Shown here piece after piece: positions 44,139-59,660 of a DNA stretch of 64,000 bases. The stretch is taken from positions 1 to 64,000 of IMG/VR virus record IMGVR_UViG_3300027704_003324; one strand, 5' to 3'. The stretch comes from a virus. The first letter of the stretch is position 1; each line of letters begins with the position of its first letter. A model generated the notes under the pieces. The model was not told the DNA's origin, made no database searches, and saw nothing but the letters and a program-made list of their open reading frames with translations. A program made the translations under genes and the position numbers.

Positions 44139-44407
44139 TAATATTCTCCGTATAAGTCGAATACCTTAGCTTCCGGAACTTCTTCTTCTACTATAAATTC
44201 TTTAATTGCAAATAGTTTTCCGTTTAATGGCTCTAACCTATAATGTCCTTTAAATTTAGTTTTTCGTAAGTACTGAGTTAATGCTTCTACTAGACCTTCA
44301 ACAACTGTCTCTTTATCTATTACTAGTTCCCAGTTATCTCCAGGAGGAACACGAACTGCAATTAGTTCGTATTCTTCTTCGATCTTTGTTTTGTTATCTT
44401 CAGCCAT
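44138..44407 (-). CDS. hypothetical protein
   Basis: coupled ORF. Confidence 0.65.
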   Translation of the reverse strand: MAEDNKTKIEEEYELIAVRVPPGDNWELVIDKETVVEGLVEALTQYLRKTKFKGHYRLEPLNGKLFAIKEFIVEEEVPEAKVFDLYGEY

Positions 44408-45348
44408 TATTGTCTTAATGTTTTCTTAATTCTATAGTCTCTTGAAGTAAAGAATTCAGGTATTAAAGATGAATGGCTAGCTCTAACAGGGTTAATATCT
44501 AAACCTCCTCTACGAGTATACAGACAAGATACCATTAACTGTTCTGGTTCGTATGCGTCTGATAGATGCTTATATACCATTTCGCAAATCTCTTCATGAA
44601 AATGACTTACTGTACGGTGAGAAACTATATACTTAGCTAGTGAATCAGCAGATGGTAATTTCTTACCTACCATTTTAATAAATACATCTCCCCAATCAGG
44701 TTGATTAGTAACTCTACAATTAGATCTAAGTAAGTTAGATTTTAATTTAACCTCTTTAGCTACATCTGATGTATCTTCTACTGCTAATTGAGTAGCATCA
44801 GATTGAAACGATGTAAAGTCAATTTGATCTAAATCTACTAATCCTCCTAAGTCTTCGTAACCTTCAAAAGATAGTTCTAATCCTTCTTCTTCACTTGCAA
44901 AGAAAGTAACAATTGTATTAGTTTCTAAAAGTTCATCTAAGTCTCTTTTAACAGTAGCTTCTATTCCAGTAATACAGTCCATAGCATTATCAGCTATTCT
45001 AGTCATATTGAAAGAATTCAAATATAACTTAATAGATTTAGACTCTACGTGAAATTCAGAATCAGAAGGGCATGTAATTTTAAGGAGTCCTGCTACTGGT
45101 TGACCTTTAGTCGTAATAGCAGATACTTCATAACAGTTCCATGTATCAACTCCTACAAAACTATCTGATGTTAGGTCGTAGCCTTCTCTATTTAAGTATC
45201 TAGGGATTTTAACTAATAGCTCTCTATTATACTGGTCAGAGTATCCATCTCCACCAACTTTACCTAAGTGCTTTCCAGCAATTGCTACTACTTCGTCGTA
45301 ATTTTTTACTTTTTCCATTTTATTTATTTTATTATATAATCTATCCAC
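44407..45348 (-). CDS. queF: NADPH-dependent preQ0 reductase, bimodular (type II) QueF
   Basis: D.WNCYEVS, VESKSIKLYLNSFN, LLRSNCRVTNQPDWG, FHEEICE, YTRRGGLDINP. Confidence 0.93.
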   Translation of the reverse strand: MDRLYNKINKMEKVKNYDEVVAIAGKHLGKVGGDGYSDQYNRELLVKIPRYLNREGYDLTSDSFVGVDTWNCYEVSAITTKGQPVAGLLKITCPSDSEFHVESKSIKLYLNSFNMTRIADNAMDCITGIEATVKRDLDELLETNTIVTFFASEEEGLELSFEGYEDLGGLVDLDQIDFTSFQSDATQLAVEDTSDVAKEVKLKSNLLRSNCRVTNQPDWGDVFIKMVGKKLPSADSLAKYIVSHRTVSHFHEEICEMVYKHLSDAYEPEQLMVSCLYTRRGGLDINPVRASHSSLIPEFFTSRDYRIKKTLRQ

Positions 45349-46507: not shown

Positions 46508-47050
46508 CTACACACCTGCTTTTCTTAAAAAATGAATCCATAAGTATTCAGATCTCTGCTGTAATGCTTTAAACATTTCGTCCTTAGTAATACGCCAAGC
46601 ATTAAATCTTTCCTCTGATATTATTTTACCTTCATCTACTCCTGCAGTTACCTTATGTAATACACATCCCATAACATCATGTTTAGCTTCATAAGCTCTA
46701 ATTTGAGGGTCTTTACCTTTTAATTCTGGGTACTCAGTAATAAGGCCTGGATGACCGTTATAAATTCCATGCTTTTCGCATATTGATGGAGGAACTACTC
46801 TTAACCATCCGTGTAAAGTAATTAAACTATCTGGAAAGTATACAAGTAGGTCTTCATACTCTTCTAAGGTAGGTTTATTACTCATAGTGAAATAACCTTT
46901 CTTTTCTATTCTAGAATCTATTGTTCTAAGGTGTTCAGGTCTATCATTAGTAATTATCCTATCAGGCCAGCGTCCTAAGCTTTCCGCTAAGTTAGCTATT
47001 TCAGAACCTGTTTGACTAAAAAACGCTATCCAAGTATTTGATTCACTCAT
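46508..47050 (-). CDS. dpdN: PurN-like formyltransferase, predicted preQ1 formyltransferase (DpdN)
   Basis: FSQTGSE, HGWLR, YNGHPG, H.VTAGVDEG; located in the que/dpdA cluster. Confidence 0.8.
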   Translation of the reverse strand: MSESNTWIAFFSQTGSEIANLAESLGRWPDRIITNDRPEHLRTIDSRIEKKGYFTMSNKPTLEEYEDLLVYFPDSLITLHGWLRVVPPSICEKHGIYNGHPGLITEYPELKGKDPQIRAYEAKHDVMGCVLHKVTAGVDEGKIISEERFNAWRITKDEMFKALQQRSEYLWIHFLRKAGV

Positions 47051-47672
47051 TTAATGTTGTTGATTTAATTCTAATATTTTCTATCTGTATAGGTTTTATA
47101 CCTCTAAGTTTAAAACTCAAACCTAATGCAAGACCTGGTCCATTACCTTTACCGCTAAAACTATTATCTTCAGATCCTATTTCAATCCATAGTTTTTCAG
47201 CTAAAGTTAAGTCTAAAACTATACCCTTAAGATACGAATTATAAGGCAGTATTCCAACTTGTTCTAGTACTGGTGTTACTTCAGTTGGGTCTACTCCTAA
47301 AGATTCCATATACTTTACTGCTTTGCTCCAGTATGCCTTTGTATACCAAGATCCTTTCCAACCACTTTGTACATAAAAATTATCGTCTGGTGGTATATGT
47401 GATGCTTTTACAGCATCTTTAAGTTTATCAGCGTCTGCATAAATAACTTGTTGTTTAATACATTGTGATATGAATATTGGCCAATAGTACTGTTCGAAAT
47501 AATTAAAAACTCCTTTGTTTGTCGGAGCCATATTAAAGATATTATAACCCTCTACTTCTATGTGAACATCGGTTTGAAGATATATAGTTGACTTCTTATC
47601 AATATATTTTATATTATTTAAAAAATCTTTTCTATGTTCATCTCCTATTGCTATGATACAATAATTAGCCAT
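47043..47672 (-). CDS. hypothetical protein with GT-A-like DxD motif
   Basis: start reassigned to MANYCIIAIG; VIYADAD; lies between dpdA and dpdN. Confidence 0.5.
   Translation of the reverse strand: MANYCIIAIGDEHRKDFLNNIKYIDKKSTIYLQTDVHIEVEGYNIFNMAPTNKGVFNYFEQYYWPIFISQCIKQQVIYADADKLKDAVKASHIPPDDNFYVQSGWKGSWYTKAYWSKAVKYMESLGVDPTEVTPVLEQVGILPYNSYLKGIVLDLTLAEKLWIEIGSEDNSFSGKGNGPGLALGLSFKLRGIKPIQIENIRIKSTTLNE
47227..47259 (-). promoter_or_regulatory. internal class-I promoter upstream of dpdN
   Basis: AGTTG-N16-TTCGTATCTTAA inside the coding sequence, exact spacing. Confidence 0.6.
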
Positions 47673-48462
47673 TTGTAAACCATTTAAATTTTTGTATATT
47701 ATTTTTAATAGTATCCAACTGCTCAATTGTGAGCTCTGAGTTAATTAGTTCATGAAGTTTCTGACGCTCTTTAGACCATAGTCCATCGGTTCCGTATGTA
47801 ATTCCTTTAATTCCATGTACTACAGGATTTGAAGTATCTAATGAGTAGATCCAATCATAGTCAGAATGCTTATAAAAACTAAACTCTTGAGGAAGTCCAC
47901 ATCCTAATAAGTGATGAGGCTTATCTTTATTAATTACCCCGTCTTTAAGTAAGTCTCCTAGTAGCTTAACACGTCCTAGCATCCAACTAACGTACTTGTT
48001 AGCATGAGGAAAAGAATCGGTGTAATACGAATAATCAAAAGAGATAGCAATCATATCTACATTAGCTATTTCATCCATAGCTTTGTAACATTCTCTGATT
48101 TGCTTATAATTTTTACCTTGAACAACCCCTATACTTTTACCAGGGACATCACTATGGTTTTTAGTCCAATTTGCAGCTTGTTGCATAGTCTTATGAGCAT
48201 CTTCTAAAGCATCCGGAATAATATACCAAGTAGGTCTTATTTCTTTAACCCAATATGCAAATTTATGTGCATCAAACGCTTCTTCTAATTCAAAGATAGA
48301 GTTATCTAAAATAACCTCTCTACCACTAGCTATTGCTTTCTTAAATTGTTCCAAATAAATTGGATCCTCTTCAAAGAGGTGCACTAAGGCATAATCGTAA
48401 TCAGTTAAATACTGTACTTCATCAAAAATACTCTTCGGACTTTCGTGTGCTATTTTAATCAT
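47665..48462 (-). CDS. dpdA: TGT-like DNA 7-deazaguanine transglycosylase (DpdA, probably DpdA3 type)
   Basis: ILDNSIFE, IIPD, GVVQG, HHLLG, SLDTS TIM-barrel motifs; que gene context. Confidence 0.8.
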   Translation of the reverse strand: MIKIAHESPKSIFDEVQYLTDYDYALVHLFEEDPIYLEQFKKAIASGREVILDNSIFELEEAFDAHKFAYWVKEIRPTWYIIPDALEDAHKTMQQAANWTKNHSDVPGKSIGVVQGKNYKQIRECYKAMDEIANVDMIAISFDYSYYTDSFPHANKYVSWMLGRVKLLGDLLKDGVINKDKPHHLLGCGLPQEFSFYKHSDYDWIYSLDTSNPVVHGIKGITYGTDGLWSKERQKLHELINSELTIEQLDTIKNNIQKFKWFTNG

Positions 48463-48643
48463 TTATTTCTGTTCTAAAACCTTTATCTAAATTAACCAAT
48501 GACTTTTGTACCATATTTACTACCTCATCTAATTTTAAAGTAACTAAATCAATGGCTGCAGTTGCAGTATCAAGAGGTATATACTTTACTCCCTCTATCT
48601 CTTTTACATCTTTCAGTAGATCTATTTGCTTATCTTTACTCAT
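48455..48643 (-). CDS. hypothetical protein
   Basis: coupled ORF. Confidence 0.6.
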   Translation of the reverse strand: MSKDKQIDLLKDVKEIEGVKYIPLDTATAAIDLVTLKLDEVVNMVQKSLVNLDKGFRTEIND

Positions 48644-49227
48644 TATATTCCTATTGATTCGTTTCTAAATTTAGCTAATTCATCATCAGAGAAGAATTGA
48701 TGTAAGTCTGGTCTGAAGTAATTAGTTGCTTTCATTACTTTTCGGTCTCTAGATCGATAGACAATATACCGTCCTTCCTTAACCTTCTCAAAATGGCAGG
48801 CCTCACCTTGCTCCGTACTTCTTTGGCTGACGGCCTGTATGGCTTCTTCTTCAGTAGTACAAGCTTTTGACATATTGCTTGCTTGTACTTCTGCATATGC
48901 GGGCCGTATCTTATCCTTAAGGCCATGTAGCATAACACCGTTCCCAAGGGAAACATAAGTAATGTCGCACAAAGCGTCCAGAACTTCCACAATGTCTCCG
49001 TTTTCGCAAGCGACTCTATATTCTTCAAGTTCTTCGAGTATGAAGTCGTAAACGAATTGCCACTCTTTCTTAGCTGGTATAGTAGGTTCATAATTATTTG
49101 GTTTATTAAAAGTATCGTTAAAAATCTCTACTTCATCTACGAAAGGAACTGGGTTGATAGTAACCTTACCATCCGCCTCACTCCAGTTTCCAGCTTTTTC
49201 AGGAAATAATTTTAATTGCTCACTCAT
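48643..49227 (-). CDS. MazG-like (PRA-PH/DR2231-type) NTP pyrophosphohydrolase
   Basis: ILEELEEY, EVLDALCDITYV, V..SNMSK, KV.K. Confidence 0.85.
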   Translation of the reverse strand: MSEQLKLFPEKAGNWSEADGKVTINPVPFVDEVEIFNDTFNKPNNYEPTIPAKKEWQFVYDFILEELEEYRVACENGDIVEVLDALCDITYVSLGNGVMLHGLKDKIRPAYAEVQASNMSKACTTEEEAIQAVSQRSTEQGEACHFEKVKEGRYIVYRSRDRKVMKATNYFRPDLHQFFSDDELAKFRNESIGI

Positions 49228-49439: not shown

Positions 49440-49967
49440 TTATTTATTTAATTTATTAGTATTTTCTTTAGGCATTGTTAAACCTCCTATAAGGTTTATG
49501 TCATCTCTTTCGTCCTGTCTTTCATCTGGTTCGTTTGCTAAAAGCTCATTAGCCATTTCTATCCACTCCGGTAGGTCTACTTGTTCTTTATCTAAGACCT
49601 CTTGCATAGTTCCGATCCATTCATCTTCTCTTTTATAATCATCTTCTAATCGTACTATATCATCTTCTCCGAAGTAGGTACCAGTCTGTACTTCTATAAA
49701 TCTTACTGGTTTATCTGTTTCATTCCAAGCTCTATGTTTAGCTCCTAATGGTATTTTAATAGATTCTCCTGCTTTTCTAAATACTTTCTCATCATCAAGT
49801 ATAATAGTTAGTTCACCGTAGATAACAGTCCACTGCTCTTTACGTTTCGTGTGGTACTGGTAAGAGAGTCTTTGTCCGGGTTCAACTTCTATAATCTTAA
49901 CTTTAGCTTCTGAGGTATCATGTAATACTTCATATGCACCCCAAGGTCTATATTCTAATGACGACAT
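49440..49967 (-). CDS. type II mannose-6-phosphate isomerase cupin
   Basis: RPWG.Y, V.PGQRLSYQYH..R.E.W, IEVQTG.Y.GEDDIVRLEDDY.R. Confidence 0.9.
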   Translation of the reverse strand: MSSLEYRPWGAYEVLHDTSEAKVKIIEVEPGQRLSYQYHTKRKEQWTVIYGELTIILDDEKVFRKAGESIKIPLGAKHRAWNETDKPVRFIEVQTGTYFGEDDIVRLEDDYKREDEWIGTMQEVLDKEQVDLPEWIEMANELLANEPDERQDERDDINLIGGLTMPKENTNKLNK

Positions 49968-50668
49968 ATGCTTGCTAATTCTATATTCTTATAAAACTCT
50001 GCTTTTGCAGAATCCTCATTTAAAAATGCTCCTGTTAACTTAGCAGTCTGCATTGAAGCTCCTTGATGCTTCACTCCTCTACAACTTACACAATTATGTG
50101 TTGCAGATATCATAACTGCTACTCCTAAATTACCTTCACATATCTTATTAACAGCATTATGAATAGCAACTGTTAATTGTTCTTGAATAGCACCTCTTCT
50201 TCCGAATTGCTCTACTATTCTATTTAATTTAGATAAGCCGACAACCTTCCCGGTCTCTGAAGCTATATAAGCTATGCTCACTTGTCCACCAATATTTTGG
50301 TGGTGGTGGGAGCACATAGACGTAACTGGAATATTAGATTCTTGTACGATTCCGTCGTAGCCGTCGCTAGGGAATGCCGTAATTCTGTCTAATGGCTCAT
50401 ATCGGCCCTTCCATAAATCGTTAACGTATGCTTTCGCTACTCTACGGGGAGTCTCAGAAGAGTTCGGATCATTTTTCCAATCCGTACCAAGAGCAGTCAA
50501 GAAGTCTCCAAATGCTTTTTCAGCATTATTAATGATAACTTCCTTCTCTTCTGATGTTAATCTAGCCTCAGGTCCGTCGGTTGCCTGCTTATCTGCTAGT
50601 TGAATGGATATACCGTTTGCATATCCAGCTTTTACTAATTCTGTTCCTTCTATAAACTTCTTTGCCAT
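49955..50668 (-). CDS. folE: GTP cyclohydrolase I
   Basis: TPRRVAK, SMCSHH, GLSKLNR, IQEQLT, HNCVSCRGV; start reassigned to MAKKFIEG. Confidence 0.95.
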   Translation of the reverse strand: MAKKFIEGTELVKAGYANGISIQLADKQATDGPEARLTSEEKEVIINNAEKAFGDFLTALGTDWKNDPNSSETPRRVAKAYVNDLWKGRYEPLDRITAFPSDGYDGIVQESNIPVTSMCSHHHQNIGGQVSIAYIASETGKVVGLSKLNRIVEQFGRRGAIQEQLTVAIHNAVNKICEGNLGVAVMISATHNCVSCRGVKHQGASMQTAKLTGAFLNEDSAKAEFYKNIELASICRH

Positions 50669-50678
50669 TTTCTCTTTA

Positions 50679-50705
50679 CTTGTTTTGTAGTGGTGCTTCA
50701 ACACT
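50679..50705 (-). ncRNA. preQ1-I-like riboswitch aptamer (folE leader)
   Basis: AGUG-UUGAAGCAC-CACU-ACAAAACAAG, between the promoter (50716-50748) and the folE start. Confidence 0.65.
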
Positions 50706-50734
50706 TATTAATACTTTAATATACGATTTTATTT

Positions 50735-51142
50735 TCATTTAACCAAATAATCTTGTATAGGATTTGAATTATCTTTTTCCCATGGATAAACTATCCACCC
50801 ATAATCATCTGCTATTTCTTGTGCATAGTACTCTGGTTTTGCTACTGATGTTGTCTTATAGTGAAGAGTAGCAAATTTAGGGTTAAACATAGTACCTCTT
50901 AAATCAAAGATTGTTTTACCGCTATCTGCTATATCATCTATAATCAATAGCTTAGGATAGTGGTTACTTGTGTACTGCATATAAGGTACTTCAAACCTAT
51001 GTGAGTACATTATTGCTAAAATGGTGCCTCCTCTTGGTATTCCAGTAACGTAGTCTATACTACCTTTACATTGTTCGTGTACTTTATCTAATAGTTCATA
51101 GACATCATCCCAAGTTAAGAATATTTTTTTTATTTCTCCCAT
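50735..51142 (-). CDS. type I purine phosphoribosyltransferase (Gpt-like)
   Basis: GIPRGG, LLIIDDIADSGKT, WIVYPWE; start probably MGEIKK. Confidence 0.9.
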   Translation of the reverse strand: MGEIKKIFLTWDDVYELLDKVHEQCKGSIDYVTGIPRGGTILAIMYSHRFEVPYMQYTSNHYPKLLIIDDIADSGKTIFDLRGTMFNPKFATLHYKTTSVAKPEYYAQEIADDYGWIVYPWEKDNSNPIQDYLVK

Positions 51143-51270
51143 GTTGTTGTTGTTGTCCATATCGTAGGATCTATTACGTAGTTAAGTTCTTTCTCAAAGT
51201 TTAATTCTCTTACTTTTTTGCCTAATTCTTGATCATTAGGTGTGTCGTGTATTATTTGTTTAAGGTTCAT
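51130..51270 (-). CDS. small hypothetical protein (46 aa, [11 protein letters not shown] motif)
   Basis: translated by hand; overlaps both neighbours slightly. Confidence 0.45.
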
Positions 51271-51571
51271 ATTTTAATCCAAAAAATTTATAATTATTTA
51301 TAACTGCTTCTTTTTCTCCGTCGGCGATTGCATCTTCTTCTGTTTCGTATATTGCGTCTACTGGGCATTCTGGTATACAGGCTCCACAATCAATACATTC
51401 GTCTGGGTTGATATAAAGGCTTTTGCCTATTAGTTGTGATTTGGTCATTTCTGCAACTTCTGCTCCTGCTCCTGTTATATCTATAGGACCATGTATACAG
51501 TCTACAGGGCAAACTGTTACGCAAGCTGTATCGCAGGTACTAATGCACGGACTTCCTATTATATAACTCAT
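51260..51571 (-). CDS. dicluster 4Fe-4S ferredoxin
   Basis: C...CD.ACV.VCPVDCI and [13 protein letters not shown]. Confidence 0.92.
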
Positions 51572-52350
51572 TATACTTCTCTTTGATCTTCAAATGCAAT
51601 GATATGGGGTCTCCAAGTCATTCTATACCCATTATCTCTAACCCAATCAAACAATACAGGGTAAGACTTAAATAGAGATTCTCTTGAGTCTCCTGCAGGC
51701 ATAAACCATACTTTATCTTGAGGTGCTTCTAAAGTATCTATACATTCCATTATTTCTTTTAATGCTGCTTTATCTTTACCATCCCATACCGGCTTTAAGT
51801 GGTAGTTAGAATGGTATGCAATACTTTTTTTCATTGCTTCATAATTAAGTCTAAACTTATTATGTTGTTTAATCATCCTTTCATCAGTAATCTTACCTTG
51901 TGGTGTTGCCACTCCAAGTACAGGTACCGAGTTAGAGAATTTGGGACTGATAGAAAGCAAATTGATAGGATAATCCGTAGGTAGAAAATGACTACCTTCG
52001 TTCTCCATAGTAATAAAAATATCTTTTTCATTAGCAAAATGTGTTAATTCATTAACTAGTTTTCCATGCATTGAAGGTGATCCTCCAGTAAGCATCATTT
52101 CTTTAATATGAGGATTCTTCTCATATGCTTTAATTATATCATTAAAGTTATATTGACCTTTATCTGGATGAATAGATGTATACCAGCTATCACACCAGCC
52201 TCCTTCTCCAAAATAACATCTATGAGTACATCCTGTAGTTCTAATCACTACCGTTGGATAACCTGCTCTACTACCTTCTGACTGTACCGCTGTATATATT
52301 TCTACAATCGGTAAATTTTTATCGTAATCTTCTACTCTACCTAGGGACAT
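51571..52350 (-). CDS. queE: 7-carboxy-7-deazaguanine synthase (radical SAM)
   Basis: QSEG..AG.P, RTTGC...C........CDS, LTGG.P, SISPK. Confidence 0.92.
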
Positions 52351-52804
52351 ATATTGCTGAGTTTTTACCGTGTTCTCTAAATTCTACTTTTATAACTTTT
52401 ACTCTACCTTCAGTTTCCGTTTCTATGAATGGAGCTAACTTTTCGTATATATACTGTGAGAACTTCTCTGCTCCTGTAGCAGGTACTACTCTAACCTGTG
52501 CTATACCTATTTGATTAAGCCTCATTGCTTCAGGTAGAAATGGATCGTCTTCTGCTATTAAGTAGGTATGGTCAAACATATGATCCATCCATACTTTTGG
52601 AGACATTCCATCTATTAAGGTCTTAGCTCTTTTCATTCCTCCGAAATCCCATACCCAGTTTCTTTCATCTAAATCTCCTTCAAACCATAGTTTAAAAGAT
52701 ACTCCATAACCGTGTAGAAATCTACAATGAGTAGTTTCGGCTTTCCATTGTCGAAAGACTGTACTGAATCCATCGAATACTTTTGTTGATTGATATTTTG
52801 CCAT
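52337..52804 (-). CDS. queD: 6-carboxytetrahydropterin synthase
   Basis: HCRFLHGY, WVWDFG, FDH, AE, VEFREH. Confidence 0.9.
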   Translation of the reverse strand: MAKYQSTKVFDGFSTVFRQWKAETTHCRFLHGYGVSFKLWFEGDLDERNWVWDFGGMKRAKTLIDGMSPKVWMDHMFDHTYLIAEDDPFLPEAMRLNQIGIAQVRVVPATGAEKFSQYIYEKLAPFIETETEGRVKVIKVEFREHGKNSAIYVPR

Positions 52805-52812
52805 AATATAAT

Positions 52813-53064
52813 TTAAACTAATTCTTCCCCAATTCCAACTAATTCAGCTAAAAATAATAAAATAAAGCCTAACTCAAATAATCCGAAGAATCCAAAAGCA
52901 CATGCTCCTAGTCGAATTGCGGATTTAATAAAAGATATTTTTTGGTGTAAACTAGGATCGGGTATTTTTTGACCGTTGATCTCTAATGACGGTTTCATAA
53001 CTACTTGCCCTCGATCGTCTCTGTAATAAAGATCATCGTTCAATTTCTCTTGTAACTTTTTCAT
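52813..53064 (-). CDS. small membrane protein leading the queD operon
   Basis: C-terminal hydrophobic hairpin ending AELVGIGEELV. Confidence 0.65.
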   Translation of the reverse strand: MKKLQEKLNDDLYYRDDRGQVVMKPSLEINGQKIPDPSLHQKISFIKSAIRLGACAFGFFGLFELGFILLFLAELVGIGEELV

Positions 53065-53066
53065 TT

Positions 53067-53094
53067 CGTGTTTTTAAAGTGGTACTGTGACACT
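53067..53094 (-). ncRNA. preQ1-I-like riboswitch aptamer (queD/queE operon leader)
   Basis: AGUG-UCACAGUAC-CACU-UUAAAAACACG followed by AA-AUG; promoter at 53111-53143. Confidence 0.7.
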
Positions 53095-53120
53095 ATCGCC
53101 TTATATTAATACAATATACG

Positions 53121-53152
53121 AAAAAAGGAGATAGTAACCAACTATCCCCCCT
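53121..53152 (-). terminator. intrinsic terminator overlapping the next promoter
   Basis: minus strand GGGGATAGT-TGGTT-ACTATCTCC-TTTTTT; contains the AGTTG -33 box. Confidence 0.7.
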
Positions 53153-53171
53153 TAATCTTCTGTATTTTATT

Positions 53172-54845
53172 TTATAAAGCTGCTATAGATGCTGTAAATG
53201 CATTATAGCTTGGAGCTGCTGCAACTAAATTCTTTAAAGCTGTTATGCTTATATAATTAGCAGATAGTGCATAAGAGCCTGTAGCTGCGTTAAGAGCACT
53301 AACTGATGGTAAGCTAGTAGTTAAAGCGTATGAACCTGTGGCTGAGTTAAGAGCTGTTAGGTCTACGTTAGTTAATACTGTTGAACCTGATAATAGTAAA
53401 GATCCTGTAACGTTTAAAGTTGTTGCAACGTTTACTTTTTTATTGAATAGCCATCTCTTATTAGATCTAACATATCCATCTTTTCGTGCTTCAAGTACTA
53501 CATCAGTTCCTCCTAATGACCCTGTTCCACCTCCTGTAAGTTGCATAGCAGGTTGTGTAGAGCCTGAGATAGCATACGAAGTTATAGAGATACCTGCATT
53601 TGGACCTGTCTTATCTGAAATGGTATAACCAGCGTAACGTTGTACTGATCCACTTTCTGTATCTAAGTAAGTCTGTACTCCAATTGAATTCCCTGGCTCT
53701 GCATAGGAGTTAATAGAAAAGTATCCTGAACCAGATATTGTCTGGTTACCTGTAAATGAATTACCTCCAGTTAAAGTAGCATGTGAACTAGTAGCTGCAT
53801 TTAAAGCAGTTACATCTGGTATATTACTTGCTAAAGCATACGAGCTTGTAGTTGCATTTAAAGCAGTTACATCTGGTATATTACTTGCTAAAGCATACGA
53901 GCTTGTAGCTGAGTTTATACTACTAACTGCTGTAGCTACTTGTGCATCTGTAGCAAAGGTAGCATCTAATGACCCTGTAAATGTATTAAGTGCTGTTAGA
54001 TCTGCGTTAGTTAATACTGTTGAACCTGATAATAATAGAGATCCTGTAACGTTTAGTACTCCTGTAACATTTACTTTCTTATTGAATATCCATCTCTTAT
54101 TAGATCTAACGTATCCATCTTTTTGAGCCTGAAGAATTACTGTTGTACCTCCTAATGACCCTGTTCCCCCTCCTGTAAGTTGCATAGCAGGCTGTGTAGA
54201 GCCTGATATAACATATGAATTAATCGAAATACCTGCATTTGGACCTGTCTTATCTGAAATGGTGTAGCCAGCGTAACGTTGTGCTGATCCGCTTTCTGTA
54301 TCTAAGTAGGTCTGTACTCCAATTGAATTTCCTGGCTCTGCATAGGAATTAATAGAGAAGTATCCAGATCCTGATATTGTTTGGTTTCCTGTAAATGAAT
54401 TCCCTCCAGCTAAAGTAGCATGTGAACTAGTAGCTGCATTTAAAGCAACAACTGCATTTGCTAATTGTGCATCAGTCGCATATGTAGCATCTAATGAACC
54501 TGTAAATGAATGTAAATTTTGTATGTGGCTATTTGCTGTTGCAATATTAGAATCAATAGACCCTGTTTTTGTATTTAAAGAACTTACTGCTGTTGATACT
54601 TGAGCATCAGTCGCATATGTTGCATCCAGAGAAGCACTAAATTGATCTAGCTTCTGTATAGCTGCAGTTACGTTTGAATATCCTTCAATACCTAATGAAC
54701 CGGTAACACTAAGGCTACCTGTAACTTTCAAAGCTCCAATAGATCCAGATACTAGTTTTCCTAGTCCATCTTGAAATTGAGCATTGTCAACTTGTACCAA
54801 TCGCTGGTACGTCTTGTTTATCTTCTTGCTTGTGAAATTTGCCAT
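53172..54845 (-). CDS. S/T/G/A-rich repetitive fibre-like (putative virion) protein
   Basis: TGSL/SGS repeats, coiled-coil repeats, duplicated ~150-aa module; class-II motif at 54862-54869. Confidence 0.65.
   Translation of the reverse strand: MANFTSKKINKTYQRLVQVDNAQFQDGLGKLVSGSIGALKVTGSLSVTGSLGIEGYSNVTAAIQKLDQFSASLDATYATDAQVSTAVSSLNTKTGSIDSNIATANSHIQNLHSFTGSLDATYATDAQLANAVVALNAATSSHATLAGGNSFTGNQTISGSGYFSINSYAEPGNSIGVQTYLDTESGSAQRYAGYTISDKTGPNAGISINSYVISGSTQPAMQLTGGGTGSLGGTTVILQAQKDGYVRSNKRWIFNKKVNVTGVLNVTGSLLLSGSTVLTNADLTALNTFTGSLDATFATDAQVATAVSSINSATSSYALASNIPDVTALNATTSSYALASNIPDVTALNAATSSHATLTGGNSFTGNQTISGSGYFSINSYAEPGNSIGVQTYLDTESGSVQRYAGYTISDKTGPNAGISITSYAISGSTQPAMQLTGGGTGSLGGTDVVLEARKDGYVRSNKRWLFNKKVNVATTLNVTGSLLLSGSTVLTNVDLTALNSATGSYALTTSLPSVSALNAATGSYALSANYISITALKNLVAAAPSYNAFTASIAAL
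53346..54447. repeat. intragenic direct duplication (about 460 bp, offset 639 bp)
   Basis: 53346-53808 aligns with 53985-54447 (anchors 53367/54006 and 53785/54424). Confidence 0.85.
53796..53908. repeat. 57-bp period tandem repeat (19 aa)
   Basis: identical 56-mers at 53796-53851 and 53853-53908. Confidence 0.9.
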
Positions 54846-54870: not shown

Positions 54871-54987
54871 CTAAAAGTTCTTATAATTAAATGGGTCTCT
54901 GTTTTTTAACTCACGAATCTTTTTCTTATACGCTCTTGACGCTTTCCATGTGGTATAGTATTCTTTTATTACTTTAAGTATTCTCAT
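54871..54987 (-). CDS. 38-aa peptide ending RDPFNYKNF, coupled to the carbamoyltransferase
   Basis: translated by hand; ATGA overlap with the upstream stop. Confidence 0.55.
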   Translation of the reverse strand: MRILKVIKEYYTTWKASRAYKKKIRELKNRDPFNYKNF

Positions 54988-56654
54988 TTTTTCATTATTA
55001 AATAATTGTTAATAACAAGATAAGGGATATCACTATTAATGAACCTTGTTACAGCTTGTTCTGGTGTTCTAGTTATCGTCTGATCTTTAAGGTTAAACGA
55101 TGTATTTAGTACAACACCATGTCCTGATACTCTTTTTAGTTCCTGTAGTAATAAATAGTACTTTTTGTTCCTTTGTTTAGTAACTGATTGAATCCTAGCT
55201 GTATTATCTATGTGAGTAGCAGAAGGAAATAAGTTTTTAGCAGTCTCTTTTACTTTAACTACTTGATTCATATAAGGGACAGCTTCATTAGCGTCAAAAT
55301 ACTTAAGTACATCCTCATTAAGAACTGATGGAGCAAAAGGTCTAAACCCTTCTCTCTTTTTTATTGTATAGTTTAACTTATCTCTCATTTTAGCATTTGT
55401 TGGGGAAGCTAGTATACTTCTATTACCTAATGCTCTAGCTCCAAATTCCATACGGCCTTGAAACCATGCTACAATATTCTGGTTGTTAATTAGTGAAGCT
55501 GTTCGTTTTAGTAAAACTTCATAATCTAGTTTTAAAAAAGAAACTTTCCCTACGTTGTCCTCTAGTACTCCCTGTATATACTCATCTGTATAATGGTTTC
55601 CTAAATAAGGTGTAATATTGGTATGTTTAGGTCCTAAATAAGCAACTAGACAAGCTCCTATAGCTGATCCAGCATCTGAAGGTGCAAAAGGTATGTGGAT
55701 ATTTTTAAAGTACTTATAAGCTTTATTATTTGCTACTCCATTATATGCACATCCTCCTCCTAAACATAAATTGTCAGAATTACATATTAGTTTAGCTCTT
55801 TCTACTAATTTTAAAAACTCTCTTTCGTAAATATTCTGTAAAGCGCAAGCTAAATCTTTATGTTCTTGAGTAACTGGTTCTTCCGGTAAACGAGGTGCTA
55901 ACTGAAGTAATCCTGCAAGGTGTTTCGTGAACATTATATTATCTGAGTATTCCCAGGTAAAGTATCCTTGGTCTATTTCGAATTTATTAGAAGTTACATT
56001 AATAAATACTTGGTCTAATTTTTCATAGTATGTATTAGGATTTCCATACGGTGATAACCCCATTACTTTGTATTCTCCTTCATTTGGCTTAAACCCTAAA
56101 AAAGCTGTTATAGTTGAATATAACATTCCTAATGAATGTGGGAAGTCTATACTTAATTTCTTATCAATACCTTTTTCATCTCCTTTACTTATAGTAACAG
56201 TTTCAAATTCTCCAACTCCGTCTACTGTTAAAATTGCTGCGTCTTTATAAGGGGAAGTATAAAAAGAAAAAGCAGCGTGAGATAAATGATGATCTATATA
56301 TTTAATTTTACCCTTATATCCGTAGTTTTCTTTTAATAAAGTTTCTGGGTTATTTGCCTTATACTCTTTAAGGAATTTTCTACGTTTAAAAAATGTTCTT
56401 ATTGGCCTTTTTGCAAAAGACTTAAGAACTCTTTGTTTCTTCTTTTCCGGAACTTCATACCAGCATACTTCATTAACTTCTTCCATACTAATGCCAGTAT
56501 CTTTAAGGCACCAATTAATTGAATTTGTGGGAAAACTATAATCATGTTTAATCTCTGTAAATCTTTCTTCTTCTACAGCTGCTACTACTTTTCCGTCTAT
56601 TACTAAACAAGCAGCACTATCATGGTAAAAAGCAGATATTCCTAATTGTATCAT
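54984..56654 (-). CDS. NodU/CmcH-family carbamoyltransferase
   Basis: HDSAA, EEERF, HH.SHA, DGVGE, GEYKVMGL..YG, EFGARALGNRSIL, NTSFN. Confidence 0.95.
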   Translation of the reverse strand: MIQLGISAFYHDSAACLVIDGKVVAAVEEERFTEIKHDYSFPTNSINWCLKDTGISMEEVNEVCWYEVPEKKKQRVLKSFAKRPIRTFFKRRKFLKEYKANNPETLLKENYGYKGKIKYIDHHLSHAAFSFYTSPYKDAAILTVDGVGEFETVTISKGDEKGIDKKLSIDFPHSLGMLYSTITAFLGFKPNEGEYKVMGLSPYGNPNTYYEKLDQVFINVTSNKFEIDQGYFTWEYSDNIMFTKHLAGLLQLAPRLPEEPVTQEHKDLACALQNIYEREFLKLVERAKLICNSDNLCLGGGCAYNGVANNKAYKYFKNIHIPFAPSDAGSAIGACLVAYLGPKHTNITPYLGNHYTDEYIQGVLEDNVGKVSFLKLDYEVLLKRTASLINNQNIVAWFQGRMEFGARALGNRSILASPTNAKMRDKLNYTIKKREGFRPFAPSVLNEDVLKYFDANEAVPYMNQVVKVKETAKNLFPSATHIDNTARIQSVTKQRNKKYYLLLQELKRVSGHGVVLNTSFNLKDQTITRTPEQAVTRFINSDIPYLVINNYLIMKK

Positions 56655-56860: not shown

Positions 56861-57203
56861 CCTCCTTCATTTGGTTCCTGATCTTAGTAGCTGAGATATC
56901 GTGTATGTCCTTGGGAGGTACGTGCTCTATTACTTCGTATCCTACTCCCCTACCGTAATTAATTGACTCAATATCCGGAATCTTAATTACCTTAACTCTT
57001 CCTTCTTCTATTAAATCTTTAAGCTCTTCTGCTAAATTCATTAGGACTTCTTGTGCAGTCCAAGGTTGTGACGAATTAGGCTCTACATCTCTAATGCAAA
57101 CTAATACGTTTTTACCTATTTTTAATCTTTGTTCGATTAACCATCTATGGCCTGGATGCCAAGGTTGCCATCTACCGATGTACATTGAAAATTGTTTGCT
57201 CAT
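56847..57203 (-). CDS. HxGH nucleotidyltransferase (cytidylyltransferase-like), candidate minimal ATP sulfurylase
   Basis: GRWQPWHPGH, ISATKIR; coupled to cysC. Confidence 0.75.
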   Translation of the reverse strand: MSKQFSMYIGRWQPWHPGHRWLIEQRLKIGKNVLVCIRDVEPNSSQPWTAQEVLMNLAEELKDLIEEGRVKVIKIPDIESINYGRGVGYEVIEHVPPKDIHDISATKIRNQMKEDGKL

Positions 57204-57640
57204 AATCCGAATACTATATGTTCTATTAAATTATATGATGCTTCTGGGGTATCTATTGTTGTGTTGATAGCAATGAAGTCTTTTTTAGGAGCTATATAAG
57301 CTTCTGCTTTAAAATGATCTCTTTCTCTAGGTTCAGTAGTATAGACGTAAAATTCACAAATATTTTTTTCACCTATTAATGTTTTAAAATCCTCTCTTTG
57401 GTCAATATAAGGAGCTATTAAAGAAACAATAACTGTTCTTCCTTTTTTATGTAGGTAGTGTGCTATTTTTTGTGCTGTAGTTACGTTTTCTACTCTTCCT
57501 TTTATTGAATAGTCTTTATTAGTTGTTAACTCTCTTAAATCGTCTCCATCAATATGAAAAGAGCCTGGTATTGCTGTATGTAGCTTTTTAGCTAATGTAG
57601 TCTTTCCAGCTGCTGGCTGGCCTGTAAACCAATATATCAT
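57200..57640 (-). CDS. cysC: adenylyl-sulfate kinase
   Basis: WFTG...AGKTTLA, IDGDDLR, YS..GR.EN, SLIAPY..QR. Confidence 0.88.
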   Translation of the reverse strand: MIYWFTGQPAAGKTTLAKKLHTAIPGSFHIDGDDLRELTTNKDYSIKGRVENVTTAQKIAHYLHKKGRTVIVSLIAPYIDQREDFKTLIGEKNICEFYVYTTEPRERDHFKAEAYIAPKKDFIAINTTIDTPEASYNLIEHIVFGL

Positions 57641-57641
57641 A

Positions 57642-57836
57642 TTACTGTTTTGTTTTAGCTATTCTAGCTGCTTCAATTATTGCTTCTGTTGAATATTTAG
57701 TTAGGATTGTATAAGCTTCCTTAACCTCTTCTGGGGTAGGTATATAGTTGTTTATATACCTTACTGAAGGAATGTTCTGTATGAGACTTGTTGTCTCATC
57801 ATTATTTTCATACCATTTACTAATTGTATCGCTCAT
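57642..57836 (-). CDS. hypothetical protein
   Basis: coupled ORF. Confidence 0.55.
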   Translation of the reverse strand: MSDTISKWYENNDETTSLIQNIPSVRYINNYIPTPEEVKEAYTILTKYSTEAIIEAARIAKTKQ

Positions 57837-58420
57837 AACTTTAAATCTTTTCTAATATCTTTTTTTACTACGTTTAAATACTCAGCTCTTTTCTTTGCAT
57901 CTACAAATGGTACTGACCAGAATTGTTTTGTTTTAAACCATCTATTTAGATTCCATCCGAATACAAATGTATAGACTCCCATTACTAATCTCAATTTAAC
58001 TGAATTAAGGTATAACGTAATAACAGGTAACATCGGTGCTCCATGTGTAATATATGTTCTAACTTTCTTATCACTTAACCTTGGTTTAGGATAAGCATAT
58101 TTACCTGTAATAGGTACAAAGTTATATGCAAAACCTGGTGTTAGTACTTCATCAAAAAATGTTTCCATCTTCGGTGTCATTCTAAACCACCAAACAGGTG
58201 ATACAAAGTATATGTGAGTAGACCAAGTAATTAGCTTTTTATATTCCTTTATCAATTCTGTTCTATCACGATGTAGTTTATCATCATATACATCGATGAT
58301 TTCATATACTTCGTTATTCTTTTCCAATTGCCTTATGATAGTTTTAAATATACCATTATAACAAAATGATTTTTGATCAGGATGCCCTATTACTACTAAA
58401 TGTTTGAACTTCTTTTTCAC
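57833..58420 (-). CDS. flavodoxin-2 family NAD(P)H:quinone oxidoreductase
   Basis: GHPD..SF, PVWWF..P, FFD.V..PGFAY, ITHG.P. Confidence 0.85.
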   Translation of the reverse strand: MKKKFKHLVVIGHPDQKSFCYNGIFKTIIRQLEKNNEVYEIIDVYDDKLHRDRTELIKEYKKLITWSTHIYFVSPVWWFRMTPKMETFFDEVLTPGFAYNFVPITGKYAYPKPRLSDKKVRTYITHGAPMLPVITLYLNSVKLRLVMGVYTFVFGWNLNRWFKTKQFWSVPFVDAKKRAEYLNVVKKDIRKDLKL

Positions 58421-58438
58421 TTACATTATTTTAATTTG

Positions 58439-58512
58439 TGGAGAATATCGGAGTCGAACCGATGACCTCCTGCGTGCAAGGCAGGCGCTCTAGCCAGCTG
58501 AGCTAATCCCCC
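58439..58512 (-). tRNA. tRNA-Ala(TGC)
   Basis: GGGGGATTAGCTCAGCTGGCTAGAGCGCCTGCCTTGCACGCAGGAGGTCATCGGTTCGACTCCGATATTCTCCA; G3:U70 identity pair; CCA not fully encoded. Confidence 0.97.
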
Positions 58513-58844: not shown

Positions 58845-59660
58845 TTAATCTCTTCCTTTAATAACGGCTGAATTATGGTCTGAAAGTATAAGCTCTACAT
58901 GCGTTTTCGCAACGTTGTATTCAACTTCTCCACTTTCATCCTCATATTGTACAGGGTCATCCACACCCAACATGATAAATGCTTCAATTCTTTCAACAGA
59001 TGATGCTGATTTATAGTCGCTATTACCGCTAGGATAAGGCTTATAGGAAGTATTAGTACGTTTGTACACTTCATTAAAATCAATTCCCAACTCTTTAACC
59101 AGTTTCTGTCCATCTTTTAATATTCCAAATTTGTCTGTATCTAAGTAAGGAGTAAAATACCCTACTCTTTCTGCATCCCAATTCCCTTCTCGAAATGCTA
59201 AATCATCCGCGTCTCTAAACTCTTGTCTACAGTCCGGATATACTGCATGATCACCTGCGTGAATACCTAAAGCAATATCACAGGTCTCTTCTGCTTTATT
59301 AGCTACTGATAATGCTACAGCTTGTGTAATAGAAGCAAATATCTTATTCCTATTAGGTACTACTGTTTCTTTCATATTATCATTCTCATAATGTCCTTCA
59401 GGTACATCATCTCCTCCTTCAACTAATGCTGAATCTAGAAGGCTTGCAAGTCCGTCTAGTTTAATTTGACGATAATTAACTCTATGACCATTATCAGCTA
59501 GATAATTAATTAAAGATTGAGCCTTTTCTAACTCTACTCTATGCTTTTGACCATAATCAAATGAAATACCAGTTACGGTATCGTACTCTTTTAATGCTCT
59601 TAATAATAATGTGGAACTATCCATTCCACCACTTAATGATACTACTACATGCTTTGCCAT
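58845..59660 (-). CDS. queC: 7-cyano-7-deazaguanine synthase
   Basis: SLSGGMDS, FDYGQKH, VVPNRN, YPDCR.EF, S..ER..AF; the usual C-terminal Zn cysteines are replaced (SYKP...SASS). Confidence 0.93.
   Translation of the reverse strand: MAKHVVVSLSGGMDSSTLLLRALKEYDTVTGISFDYGQKHRVELEKAQSLINYLADNGHRVNYRQIKLDGLASLLDSALVEGGDDVPEGHYENDNMKETVVPNRNKIFASITQAVALSVANKAEETCDIALGIHAGDHAVYPDCRQEFRDADDLAFREGNWDAERVGYFTPYLDTDKFGILKDGQKLVKELGIDFNEVYKRTNTSYKPYPSGNSDYKSASSVERIEAFIMLGVDDPVQYEDESGEVEYNVAKTHVELILSDHNSAVIKGRD

Follow-up and report, generated by a model that had tools for sequence, protein, structure and literature searches.

We describe a small conserved RNA element in the leader of a phage operon for 7-deazaguanine synthesis. 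The window, that is the whole stretch analysed, comprises 64,000 nucleotides and corresponds to the first 64 kb of the virus record IMGVR_UViG_3300027704_003324 (139,240 bases). The element lies on the minus strand at 53094-53067 and reads AGUG-UCACAGUAC-CACU-UUAAAAACACG; these 28 nucleotides are followed by AA and then by an ATG start codon. Judging from its sequence, the element is likely to be a phage-specific relative of the type II preQ1-I riboswitches which has a stem of 4 bp, works independently of a Shine-Dalgarno (SD) sequence and would shut translation when preQ1 or preQ0 accumulates. It would thereby probably let the phage throttle the synthesis of its modified DNA base.

The leader and its operon

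In DNA letters, the element is composed of AGTG (53094-53091), TCACAGTAC (53090-53082), CACT (53081-53078) and TTAAAAACACG (53077-53067). The spacer AA (53066-53065) separates it from the start codon ATG (53064-53062, minus strand). The 27-nt search pattern derived from it has a single match in the window, and a match occurs in 0 of 100 shuffled windows. The complete record also contains this single match.

The proposed fold combines a hairpin stem (P1), a loop, an A-rich tail and a second, short pairing (P2) between the loop and the 3′ end, all on the minus strand. The 5′ strand of P1 is AGUG at motif positions 1-4 (53091-53094). Its last base, G4 (53091), closes the stem and is presumed to form the floor of the ligand pocket together with C14. 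The 9-nt loop occupies positions 5-13 (53082-53090) and consists of U5 (53090), C6 (53089), A7 (53088), C8 (53087), A9 (53086), G10 (53085), U11 (53084), A12 (53083) and C13 (53082). Within this loop, C13 is the presumed ligand-pairing base, and G10 and C8 are the presumed 5′ partners of P2. The 3′ strand of P1, CACU, covers positions 14-17 (53078-53081). The A-rich tail L3, UUAAAAA, follows at positions 18-24 (53071-53077). Its last base, A24 (53071), is the presumed equivalent of the adenine which reads the ligand edge in known aptamers, a role deduced from PMC8222354 and PMC11625349. Finally, CACG at positions 25-28 (53067-53070) would provide the 3′ strand of P2 through the proposed pairs C25-G10 and G28-C8. 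After the element there is neither a terminator nor an SD sequence.

Upstream on the same strand, a 557-amino-acid (aa) open reading frame (ORF; 53172-54845) ends at 53172. It is closed by a terminator-like hairpin with a U-run (53121-53153, minus strand), recognised by folding and from its letters. The hairpin has a minimum free energy of -16.1 kcal/mol (z -3.62), and 1 of 200 shuffles folded as well. A simple terminator scan listed no terminator here, despite the strong hairpin seen by folding. The loop of the hairpin contains the TTG of the next promoter. The promoter-like boxes (53111-53141, minus strand) consist of this TTG (53141-53139), a 20-nt spacer and TATATTGT (53118-53111). Across the family of leaders introduced below, a TAnnTT box is present 4-18 nt before P1 in 83 of 84 distinct leaders, and a TTG lies 15-28 nt upstream of it in 76 of the 83 leaders having that box. 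We take this pair of boxes to be the Bacteroidota -33/-7 promoter type. The letters suggest a transcription start at about 53106-53100, a few nucleotides before P1. On the downstream side, the distance from element to ATG ranges across the family from 3 to 11 nt and is mostly 4-7 nt.

The first ORF behind the element encodes 83 aa (52813-53064, minus strand), and its ATG stands 2 nt past the element. The C-terminal half of this protein is hydrophobic. It matches no Pfam or PHROG family, and the ESM Atlas shows viral hypothetical clusters only. Homologues of the 83-aa ORF are found in many phage contigs, either between the element and queD or beside a thioredoxin-like gene before queD. Pfam and PHROG scans identify the genes which follow on the minus strand: QueD (PTPS; 52337-52804), QueE (51571-52350), a ferredoxin with two 4Fe-4S motifs (51260-51571), a phosphoribosyltransferase (PRTase)-like protein of 141 aa (50735-51160), FolE (49955-50704), a cupin (49440-49967), a MazG-like protein (48643-49227), a formyltransferase-like protein (46508-47050) and QueF (44407-45348). 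The genes between 44407 and 52804 are presumably co-transcribed behind the 83-aa ORF. QueC (58845-59660) belongs to a separate unit further upstream.

At the DNA level, the cultured phages closest to this virus are Flavobacterium phage vB_FspM_immuto (hereafter immuto) and Cellulophaga phages. A 265-aa protein (47665-48462, minus strand) is a candidate DpdA on the basis of a gene order and size common with immuto only; no family match in the Pfam and PHROG scans names DpdA.

A first-pass annotation of this DNA had described the leader as a preQ1-class-I-like riboswitch. Its letters and coordinates for the leader are exact on re-reading the minus strand, and the TTG and the TATATTGT box are present where it had placed a promoter. 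It had also let the element lead the queD operon. That operon does lie downstream, with one correction: its first gene is the 83-aa ORF, and queD is the second.

Conservation, covariation and gene linkage across phages

Well over a hundred phage contigs share the element, which stands upstream of queD operons, of folE and of one folE2. It is preserved in many diverged contigs while the flanks differ, and it is more than a product of chance. A first sample comprised 103 viral loci, of which 23 were fetched via the 83-aa protein and 80 via QueD; these were searched for the 27-mer with up to 5 mismatches. At no more than 1 mismatch it is present in 32 of the 103 loci (29/80 QueD loci and 3/23 loci of the 83-aa ORF), in each case a few bases ahead of the ATG that opens a queD operon. 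Among these 32 loci the promoter spacer, the upstream gene, the first ORF and the flanks diverge.

A first loose scan of IMG/VR, in which the letters of loop and tail were fixed and both arms of P1 were left free, returned at least 119 stretches. A perfect 4-bp P1 is formed in 71 of the 119 matches listed. A shifted control pattern, one A longer, gave 21 matches and a perfect P1 in none of them. Among the matches listed, QueD, QueE or FolE is encoded within 5 kb downstream in 63 of the 71 with a perfect stem and in none of the 48 with an imperfect stem; gene context and stem complementarity thus pick out the same set. Of the remaining perfect-stem matches listed, 5 (of the 71) sit on contigs which end within 1.5 kb. 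About one chance perfect stem is expected among 48. Three identical TTGT/ACAA matches (L149, L237, L244) have a perfect stem and neither a nearby ATG nor a que gene, and were taken as chance.

Within the queD-type set, five loci carry GGUG/CACC instead of AGUG/CACU and stand directly before folE. A covariance model built from 57 leaders furthermore detected a diverged copy in the cultured phage immuto (NC_055915), again directly before folE. This copy reads GGAG-UCGUAGAAC-CUCC-AUAAAAACAA and is preceded by a TTG and a TATATTAA box. It was seen by the covariance model only; blastn of the leader against 50,697 GenBank phage records yielded chance-level matches only. A scan for this folE subtype, in which any base but A was required at position two of the 3′ arm of P1, returned 57 stretches. 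The stem is perfect in 38 of them, namely 27 with GGAG/CUCC and 11 with UGAG/CUCA. FolE lies directly downstream in 37 of these 38, and the remaining one is on a contig ending there. Among the 19 imperfect matches, 18 have no que gene. The exception (L212, 8330-8942) has AGAG/CUCG with an outer A.G mismatch and precedes FolE2 (PF02649), which carries out the same GTP cyclohydrolase I reaction as FolE (PF01227) and belongs to an unrelated family; its contig also has a queD-type copy. Both subtypes occur together, with differing P1 letters, in 12 loci. In all five large contigs searched with the model, one or two copies are found and nothing else at E ≤ 0.1. The record of the window phage has a single copy.

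In the strict form, the element looks phage-restricted. The strict pattern gave three matches in 185,579 prokaryote species, each represented by one genome. Two of them, in Ruminococcaceae, fall in coding-like DNA and were taken as chance. The third is a contig of 5,922 bases (L253, NYWG01000135.1) binned in a Verrucomicrobiales metagenome-assembled genome. Both copies of the element are present on it, along with the phage QueD-QueE-ferredoxin-PRTase-FolE cluster; it seems to be of phage origin and to have been assigned to the wrong bin.

Base-pairing was evaluated in 48 distinct sequences of both subtypes, which also underlie the invariance counts. P1 is paired in 99.6% of cells. The first pair is A-U in 31 sequences, G-C in 11, U-A in 5 and other in 1; the third is U-A in 34 and A-U in 14; the second and the fourth are G-C throughout. 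Covariation scores 0.364, whereas shuffles average 0.089; none of the 500 shuffles attains the observed value, and slid controls stay at or below 0.138. Completed scans for a non-C at the first or the third base of the 3′ arm returned 8 and 20 matches, respectively. None of these stretches is a family member: their stem complementarity is at most 3 and no que genes lie downstream. No member with a non-C at position 14 or 16, and hence with a changed G4-C14 or G2-C16 pair, was found in this way, so that the closing G-C pair is constant while its neighbours vary. Taken together, covariation gives good but not overwhelming support to P1.

Seventeen of the 28 positions are invariant in the 48 distinct sequences. 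In the loop, these include U5, C6, A9, G10, A12 and C13 (48/48), and on the 3′ side A20-A24, C25 and A26. Positions 7-8 are either GU or AC, and position 11 varies. The invariant bases can be set beside the ligand pocket of the 33-nt Thermoanaerobacter tengcongensis aptamer. There, the ligand pairs with C15 and its other edge is read by A29 and U6; it is stacked between the P1-closing pair G5-C16 and G11, the latter being part of the triple C7-G11-C30 (PMC8222354, PMC11625349). In type II preQ1-I aptamers, the 3′ strand of P1 is immediately preceded by AC, whose C is the specificity base (PMC11625349). The order-matched positions of the phage element, G4-C14, U5, C6, G10, C25, A12-C13 and A24, are invariant in 48/48 sequences, the mapping being made via the residue names in these papers. 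The pocket bases of type II therefore have presumed equivalents in the phage element, with roles assigned by position.

For P2, G10-C25 is possible in 48/48 sequences and never varies. The 8-28 pair was tallied in 49 distinct queD-type rows and is U-A in 20, U-G in 12, C-G in 10 and other in 7. Position 28 goes with the type of loop. In the AC-loop variant (A7 C8), to which the window belongs, it is G in 11/11 distinct leaders; in the GU-loop variant it is A in 22, G in 15, U in 6 and C in 2. On a tree of QueD, the two variants are interleaved: the AC label needs seven changes, at least five of them forced by well-supported branches, and G28 is present in 9/9 AC rows. An exchange of whole leaders between phages could inflate this count of changes. 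Post hoc, every sequence can form G10-C25 plus either U8-A26 or C8-G28. P2 as a pseudoknot pairing is plausible and partly supported.

The first-pass annotation had named lack of conservation or covariation in homologous leaders as grounds for abandoning its proposal. The element is kept before queD, folE and folE2 in many contigs, and two pairs of the 4-bp P1 which it had drawn covary. The equivalents it had pointed out for the U after P1, the ligand-pairing C and the G-C pseudoknot pair are all invariant. Its C-G pseudoknot pair is present in 11 of 11 distinct leaders with the AC loop of the window.

Several observations accompany these results. The ferredoxin and the PRTase-like gene (50735-51571) are kept within many of these 7-deazaguanine operons. 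In the window, folE has a promoter-like box, cgTATATTAA, about 15 nt before its GTG start (50705-50735, minus strand) and no element, and many relatives carry a second, folE-type copy at that place. In the window phage, folE and the genes behind it may escape control by the element. Two contigs of a marine RNA library match the window at 53062-53096 only (35 bases); their flanks are unlike it on both sides, and one flank holds a TATATT box. They probably stem from leaders of further phages in that sample which share the element. Between QueC and the queD operon (54984-56654 and 57200-58420, minus strand) lie genes for Nol-like carbamoyltransferase, APS-kinase-like and flavodoxin-like proteins. 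A tRNA at 58439-58512 is the sole Rfam match in the window at the gathering threshold.

Proposed mechanism and alternative explanations

In the mechanism which we propose, the mRNA would start a few nucleotides before P1, from the Bacteroidota-type promoter. At low ligand concentration the leader of about 40 nt would be unstructured, and the A-rich stretch upstream of the AUG would be free for SD-independent initiation. The aptamer itself would be a miniature H-type pseudoknot of 28 nt, made up of the 4-bp P1, the 9-nt loop, an A-rich tail of 7 nt and a short P2. Its ligand would be a free 7-deazaguanine base, most probably preQ1 and possibly preQ0, which on accumulating would pair with C13 (53082) and stack between the P1-closing G4-C14 and G10-C25. 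The A-rich tail would dock onto P1, and the knot would lock in the tail as far as G28, which stands 3 nt upstream of the AUG. As a result the A-rich stretch at about -3 to -14 would be withdrawn from the ribosome, which makes the element a putative translational OFF switch. Translation of the first ORF would fall and, by coupling or mRNA decay, so would that of queD, queE and the following genes up to folE. The expected outcome is feedback on the pathway which turns GTP into the base replacing G in the phage DNA.

The chemistry of the relatives bears on the ligand. QueC and a two-domain QueF are encoded by all five large element-bearing contigs, as well as by the window phage and immuto. The DNA of immuto contains 345,000 7-(formylamino)methyl-7-deazaguanine (fdPreQ1) per 10^6 nucleotides (Table 1, PMC10516641), and the discussion in PMC10516641 describes its genome as completely modified. 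A sensed base that is preQ1, or stands next to it in the pathway, would agree with this content. A bolder version of the proposal, towards which we lean only slightly, takes the element, with its 28 nt and 4-bp P1, to be smaller than any natural riboswitch aptamer seen so far and to be a phage-only offshoot of preQ1-I. It would hide an A-rich initiation region without an SD sequence and exert feedback on the flux from GTP to 7-deazaguanine, the ligand being perhaps formyl-preQ1 or preQ0 rather than preQ1.

A number of results speak against a preQ1-I-like switch at this site. Folding of the leader gives no stable structure (-3.1 kcal/mol, z +1.2). Only two of the four P1 pairs vary, with four versions of the stem and few independent events. 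In P2, 7 of 49 distinct sequences cannot form the 8-28 pair; an alternative scheme with 7-27 and 8-26 fails in 10 of 49, the rows with the AC loop, and position 27 is mostly A in the folE subtype. At 28 nt with a 4-bp P1, the element is also smaller than the T. tengcongensis aptamer with its 33 nt and 5-bp P1 (PMC8222354). As to distribution, 51 of the 80 QueD loci are without the element, including Cellulophaga phage phiST, which has no such element upstream of queD, and the queD of immuto itself; in most of these loci, queD lies inside a longer operon. Concerning the transcription start, contigs bridge the terminator and the promoter in 2 of 4 RNA-library runs (two studies), and other RNA-library contigs stop at differing sites, 53106 and 53089. 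Such contigs show neither transcript ends nor strands, and their bridging or stopping settles nothing on the start site.

Lastly, the element does not match any catalogued Rfam family. The first-pass annotation had proposed a check with the Rfam preQ1-I model, and this check came out negative: in searches of 301 nt and of 51 nt spanning the site, RF00522 gives no match up to an E of 10, and it gives none for a GU-type (L040) or folE-type (immuto) variant. The site is not among the four weak RF00522 matches in the 139-kb record, the best of which scores 16.2 bits at a cut-off of 39, and no Rfam 15 family matches the element. We would not file it under RF00522 as curated, and regard it as a smaller variant which may work like type II preQ1-I.

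Among other explanations, a structured RNA operator bound by a protein fares best, and we nevertheless hold it to be unlikely. The protein, which would sense a metabolite or the timing of infection, could be the phage PRTase-like protein by analogy with PyrR, the 83-aa protein or a host factor. Conservation, P1 covariation and the position at the start codon fit such an operator equally well. Thermodynamic folding alone predicts no stable structure, and a PRTase-family gene is present in many of these operons. However, there is no consistent partner gene. Many loci have no PRTase homologue within 5 kb, the 83-aa ORF is absent where queD or folE directly follows, and folE-type copies are followed by FolE, the MazG-like protein and the 265-aa protein only. 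In addition, the one-for-one match of invariant bases to a known ligand pocket would be a coincidence.

Less probable still is a constitutive element for translation initiation or mRNA stability which senses nothing, with the A-rich tract serving initiation and the hairpin guarding the 5′ end. Bacteroidota mRNAs without an SD sequence are said to need an A-rich stretch before the AUG; the tail would supply one, and the position 3-11 nt before the ATG is suitable. A generic enhancer, however, needs no invariant asymmetric loop bases. It would also have to explain why each genome has just one or two copies, all of them before 7-deazaguanine genes, including those for two non-homologous GTP cyclohydrolases, while other genes of the same phages are without it.

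The element might instead act as DNA, with a repressor or activator bound to an inverted repeat just downstream of the promoter. The arms of P1 do form such a repeat, 4-18 nt past the promoter-like box. Yet they are only 4 bp long, and neither the 9-bp spacer nor the tail is symmetric, although both are invariant. The two copies in one genome differ in the letters of their arms and stay complementary, which suits a helix and not a protein reading the sequence. The distance to the promoter box (4-18 nt) varies more than that to the ATG (mostly 4-7 nt), and every family copy found is on the coding strand just upstream of an ATG. We give a DNA operator very little credence.

That likeness and conservation reflect chance or recent common descent without function is scarcely credible: many contigs do come from related phages and the extreme conservation leaves little variation, but 17 of 28 positions are invariant against a background of differing flanks, promoter spacers and first ORFs, and even of differing downstream gene families, and the AC and GU loop variants are interleaved on the QueD tree with the number of changes given above.

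A preQ1-I-like switch in this leader would have several implications. If the element binds a 7-deazaguanine, phages would meter a costly pathway by a metabolite-sensing RNA and not by a protein. Natural aptamers would gain a new lower bound on their size, and riboswitch control over SD-independent initiation in Bacteroidota-type mRNAs would have a first example. The element is also a compact marker of 7-deazaguanine DNA-modification operons in viromes.

Relation to known riboswitches

The literature search covered open-access PMC papers and bioRxiv and found no description of the element, in agreement with the remark in the first-pass annotation that it is undescribed for phage 7-deazaguanine pathways. 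No riboswitch for a DNA hypermodification pathway is reported there, and 'riboswitch' and 'DpdA' occur together in none of the papers covered. A 2024 review of the preQ1 family contains 0 occurrences of 'phage' or 'virus', and the paper on the modifications of these phages (PMC10516641) contains 0 occurrences of 'riboswitch'.

A few Rfam matches were considered and set aside. The best RF00522 match in the record (109927-109968, outside the window, 16.2 bits) lies inside a 188-aa ORF and was taken as chance. Weak matches to trpB (which corresponds to the terminator hairpin), DUF805, rivX, SIB, CrcZ and the S4 leader are far below their cut-offs. The DUF805 RNA match (RF03081, 53037-53098, minus strand), the best near the site, scores 13.6 bits with an E of 6.8 on 301 nt, at a cut-off of 51.1, and is gone in the 51-nt search. 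At the start of the consensus of this RNA stand a hairpin of 4 bp, about 10 nt of loop and a tail rich in U and A which closes with C, a layout that resembles that of the phage element. No link between DUF805 and a riboswitch was found in the literature search. Two Clostridia genomes were searched for preQ1-I members and none was found.

Phage Dp-1 has queuosine genes and possibly a catalogued preQ1 riboswitch near a transporter gene. If true, this case would be a precedent for a phage carrying a preQ1 riboswitch of bacterial type, and not for the element described here.

Riboswitches are rare in phages; the glutamine riboswitches (glnA RNA) of marine myophages are an example (PMC9004378). Like the proposed switch, these are phage-carried, metabolite-sensing RNAs which are thought to regulate phage genes (PMC9004378). 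They differ in class, ligand and targets, and they match a catalogued bacterial family whereas the phage element matches none.

Within preQ1-I, type III, represented by the leader of E. coli yhhQ, is described as the smallest naturally occurring aptamer (PMC10622847). It resembles the phage element as a very small translational class I aptamer with an AC specificity motif (PMC10622847). Type III has UU after the 5′ strand of P1 and a pyrimidine-rich loop, buries an AAGG SD sequence and is nearly confined to Pseudomonadota (PMC10622847, PMC11625349). In the phage element, by contrast, UC follows the 5′ strand of P1, the loop contains purines and an SD sequence is absent.

The closest resemblance is to type II preQ1-I. 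In both, the hairpin P1 is followed by an A-rich tail, which pairs back to the loop as an H-type pseudoknot in type II and may do so in the phage. In both, AC stands directly before the 3′ strand of P1 (53083 and 53082 in the window), with the C as the specificity base, known in type II and presumed in the phage. They also have in common the G-C closing pair of P1, the U after its 5′ strand, the bases of a C-G-C ceiling and the adenine before the ceiling C. The location directly before a start codon is that of the T. tengcongensis translational switch. By position mapping, the phage loop is one base and the tail two bases shorter than in T. tengcongensis. The phage element has no SD sequence to hide, and the tail itself would be the A-rich initiation region. 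Furthermore, it is phage-encoded, and its strict form is absent from the 185,579 species genomes save for one phage-like contig. Both RF00522 and the phage element are linked to 7-deazaguanine biosynthesis genes; those of the phages serve DNA modification and not the synthesis of tRNA queuosine.

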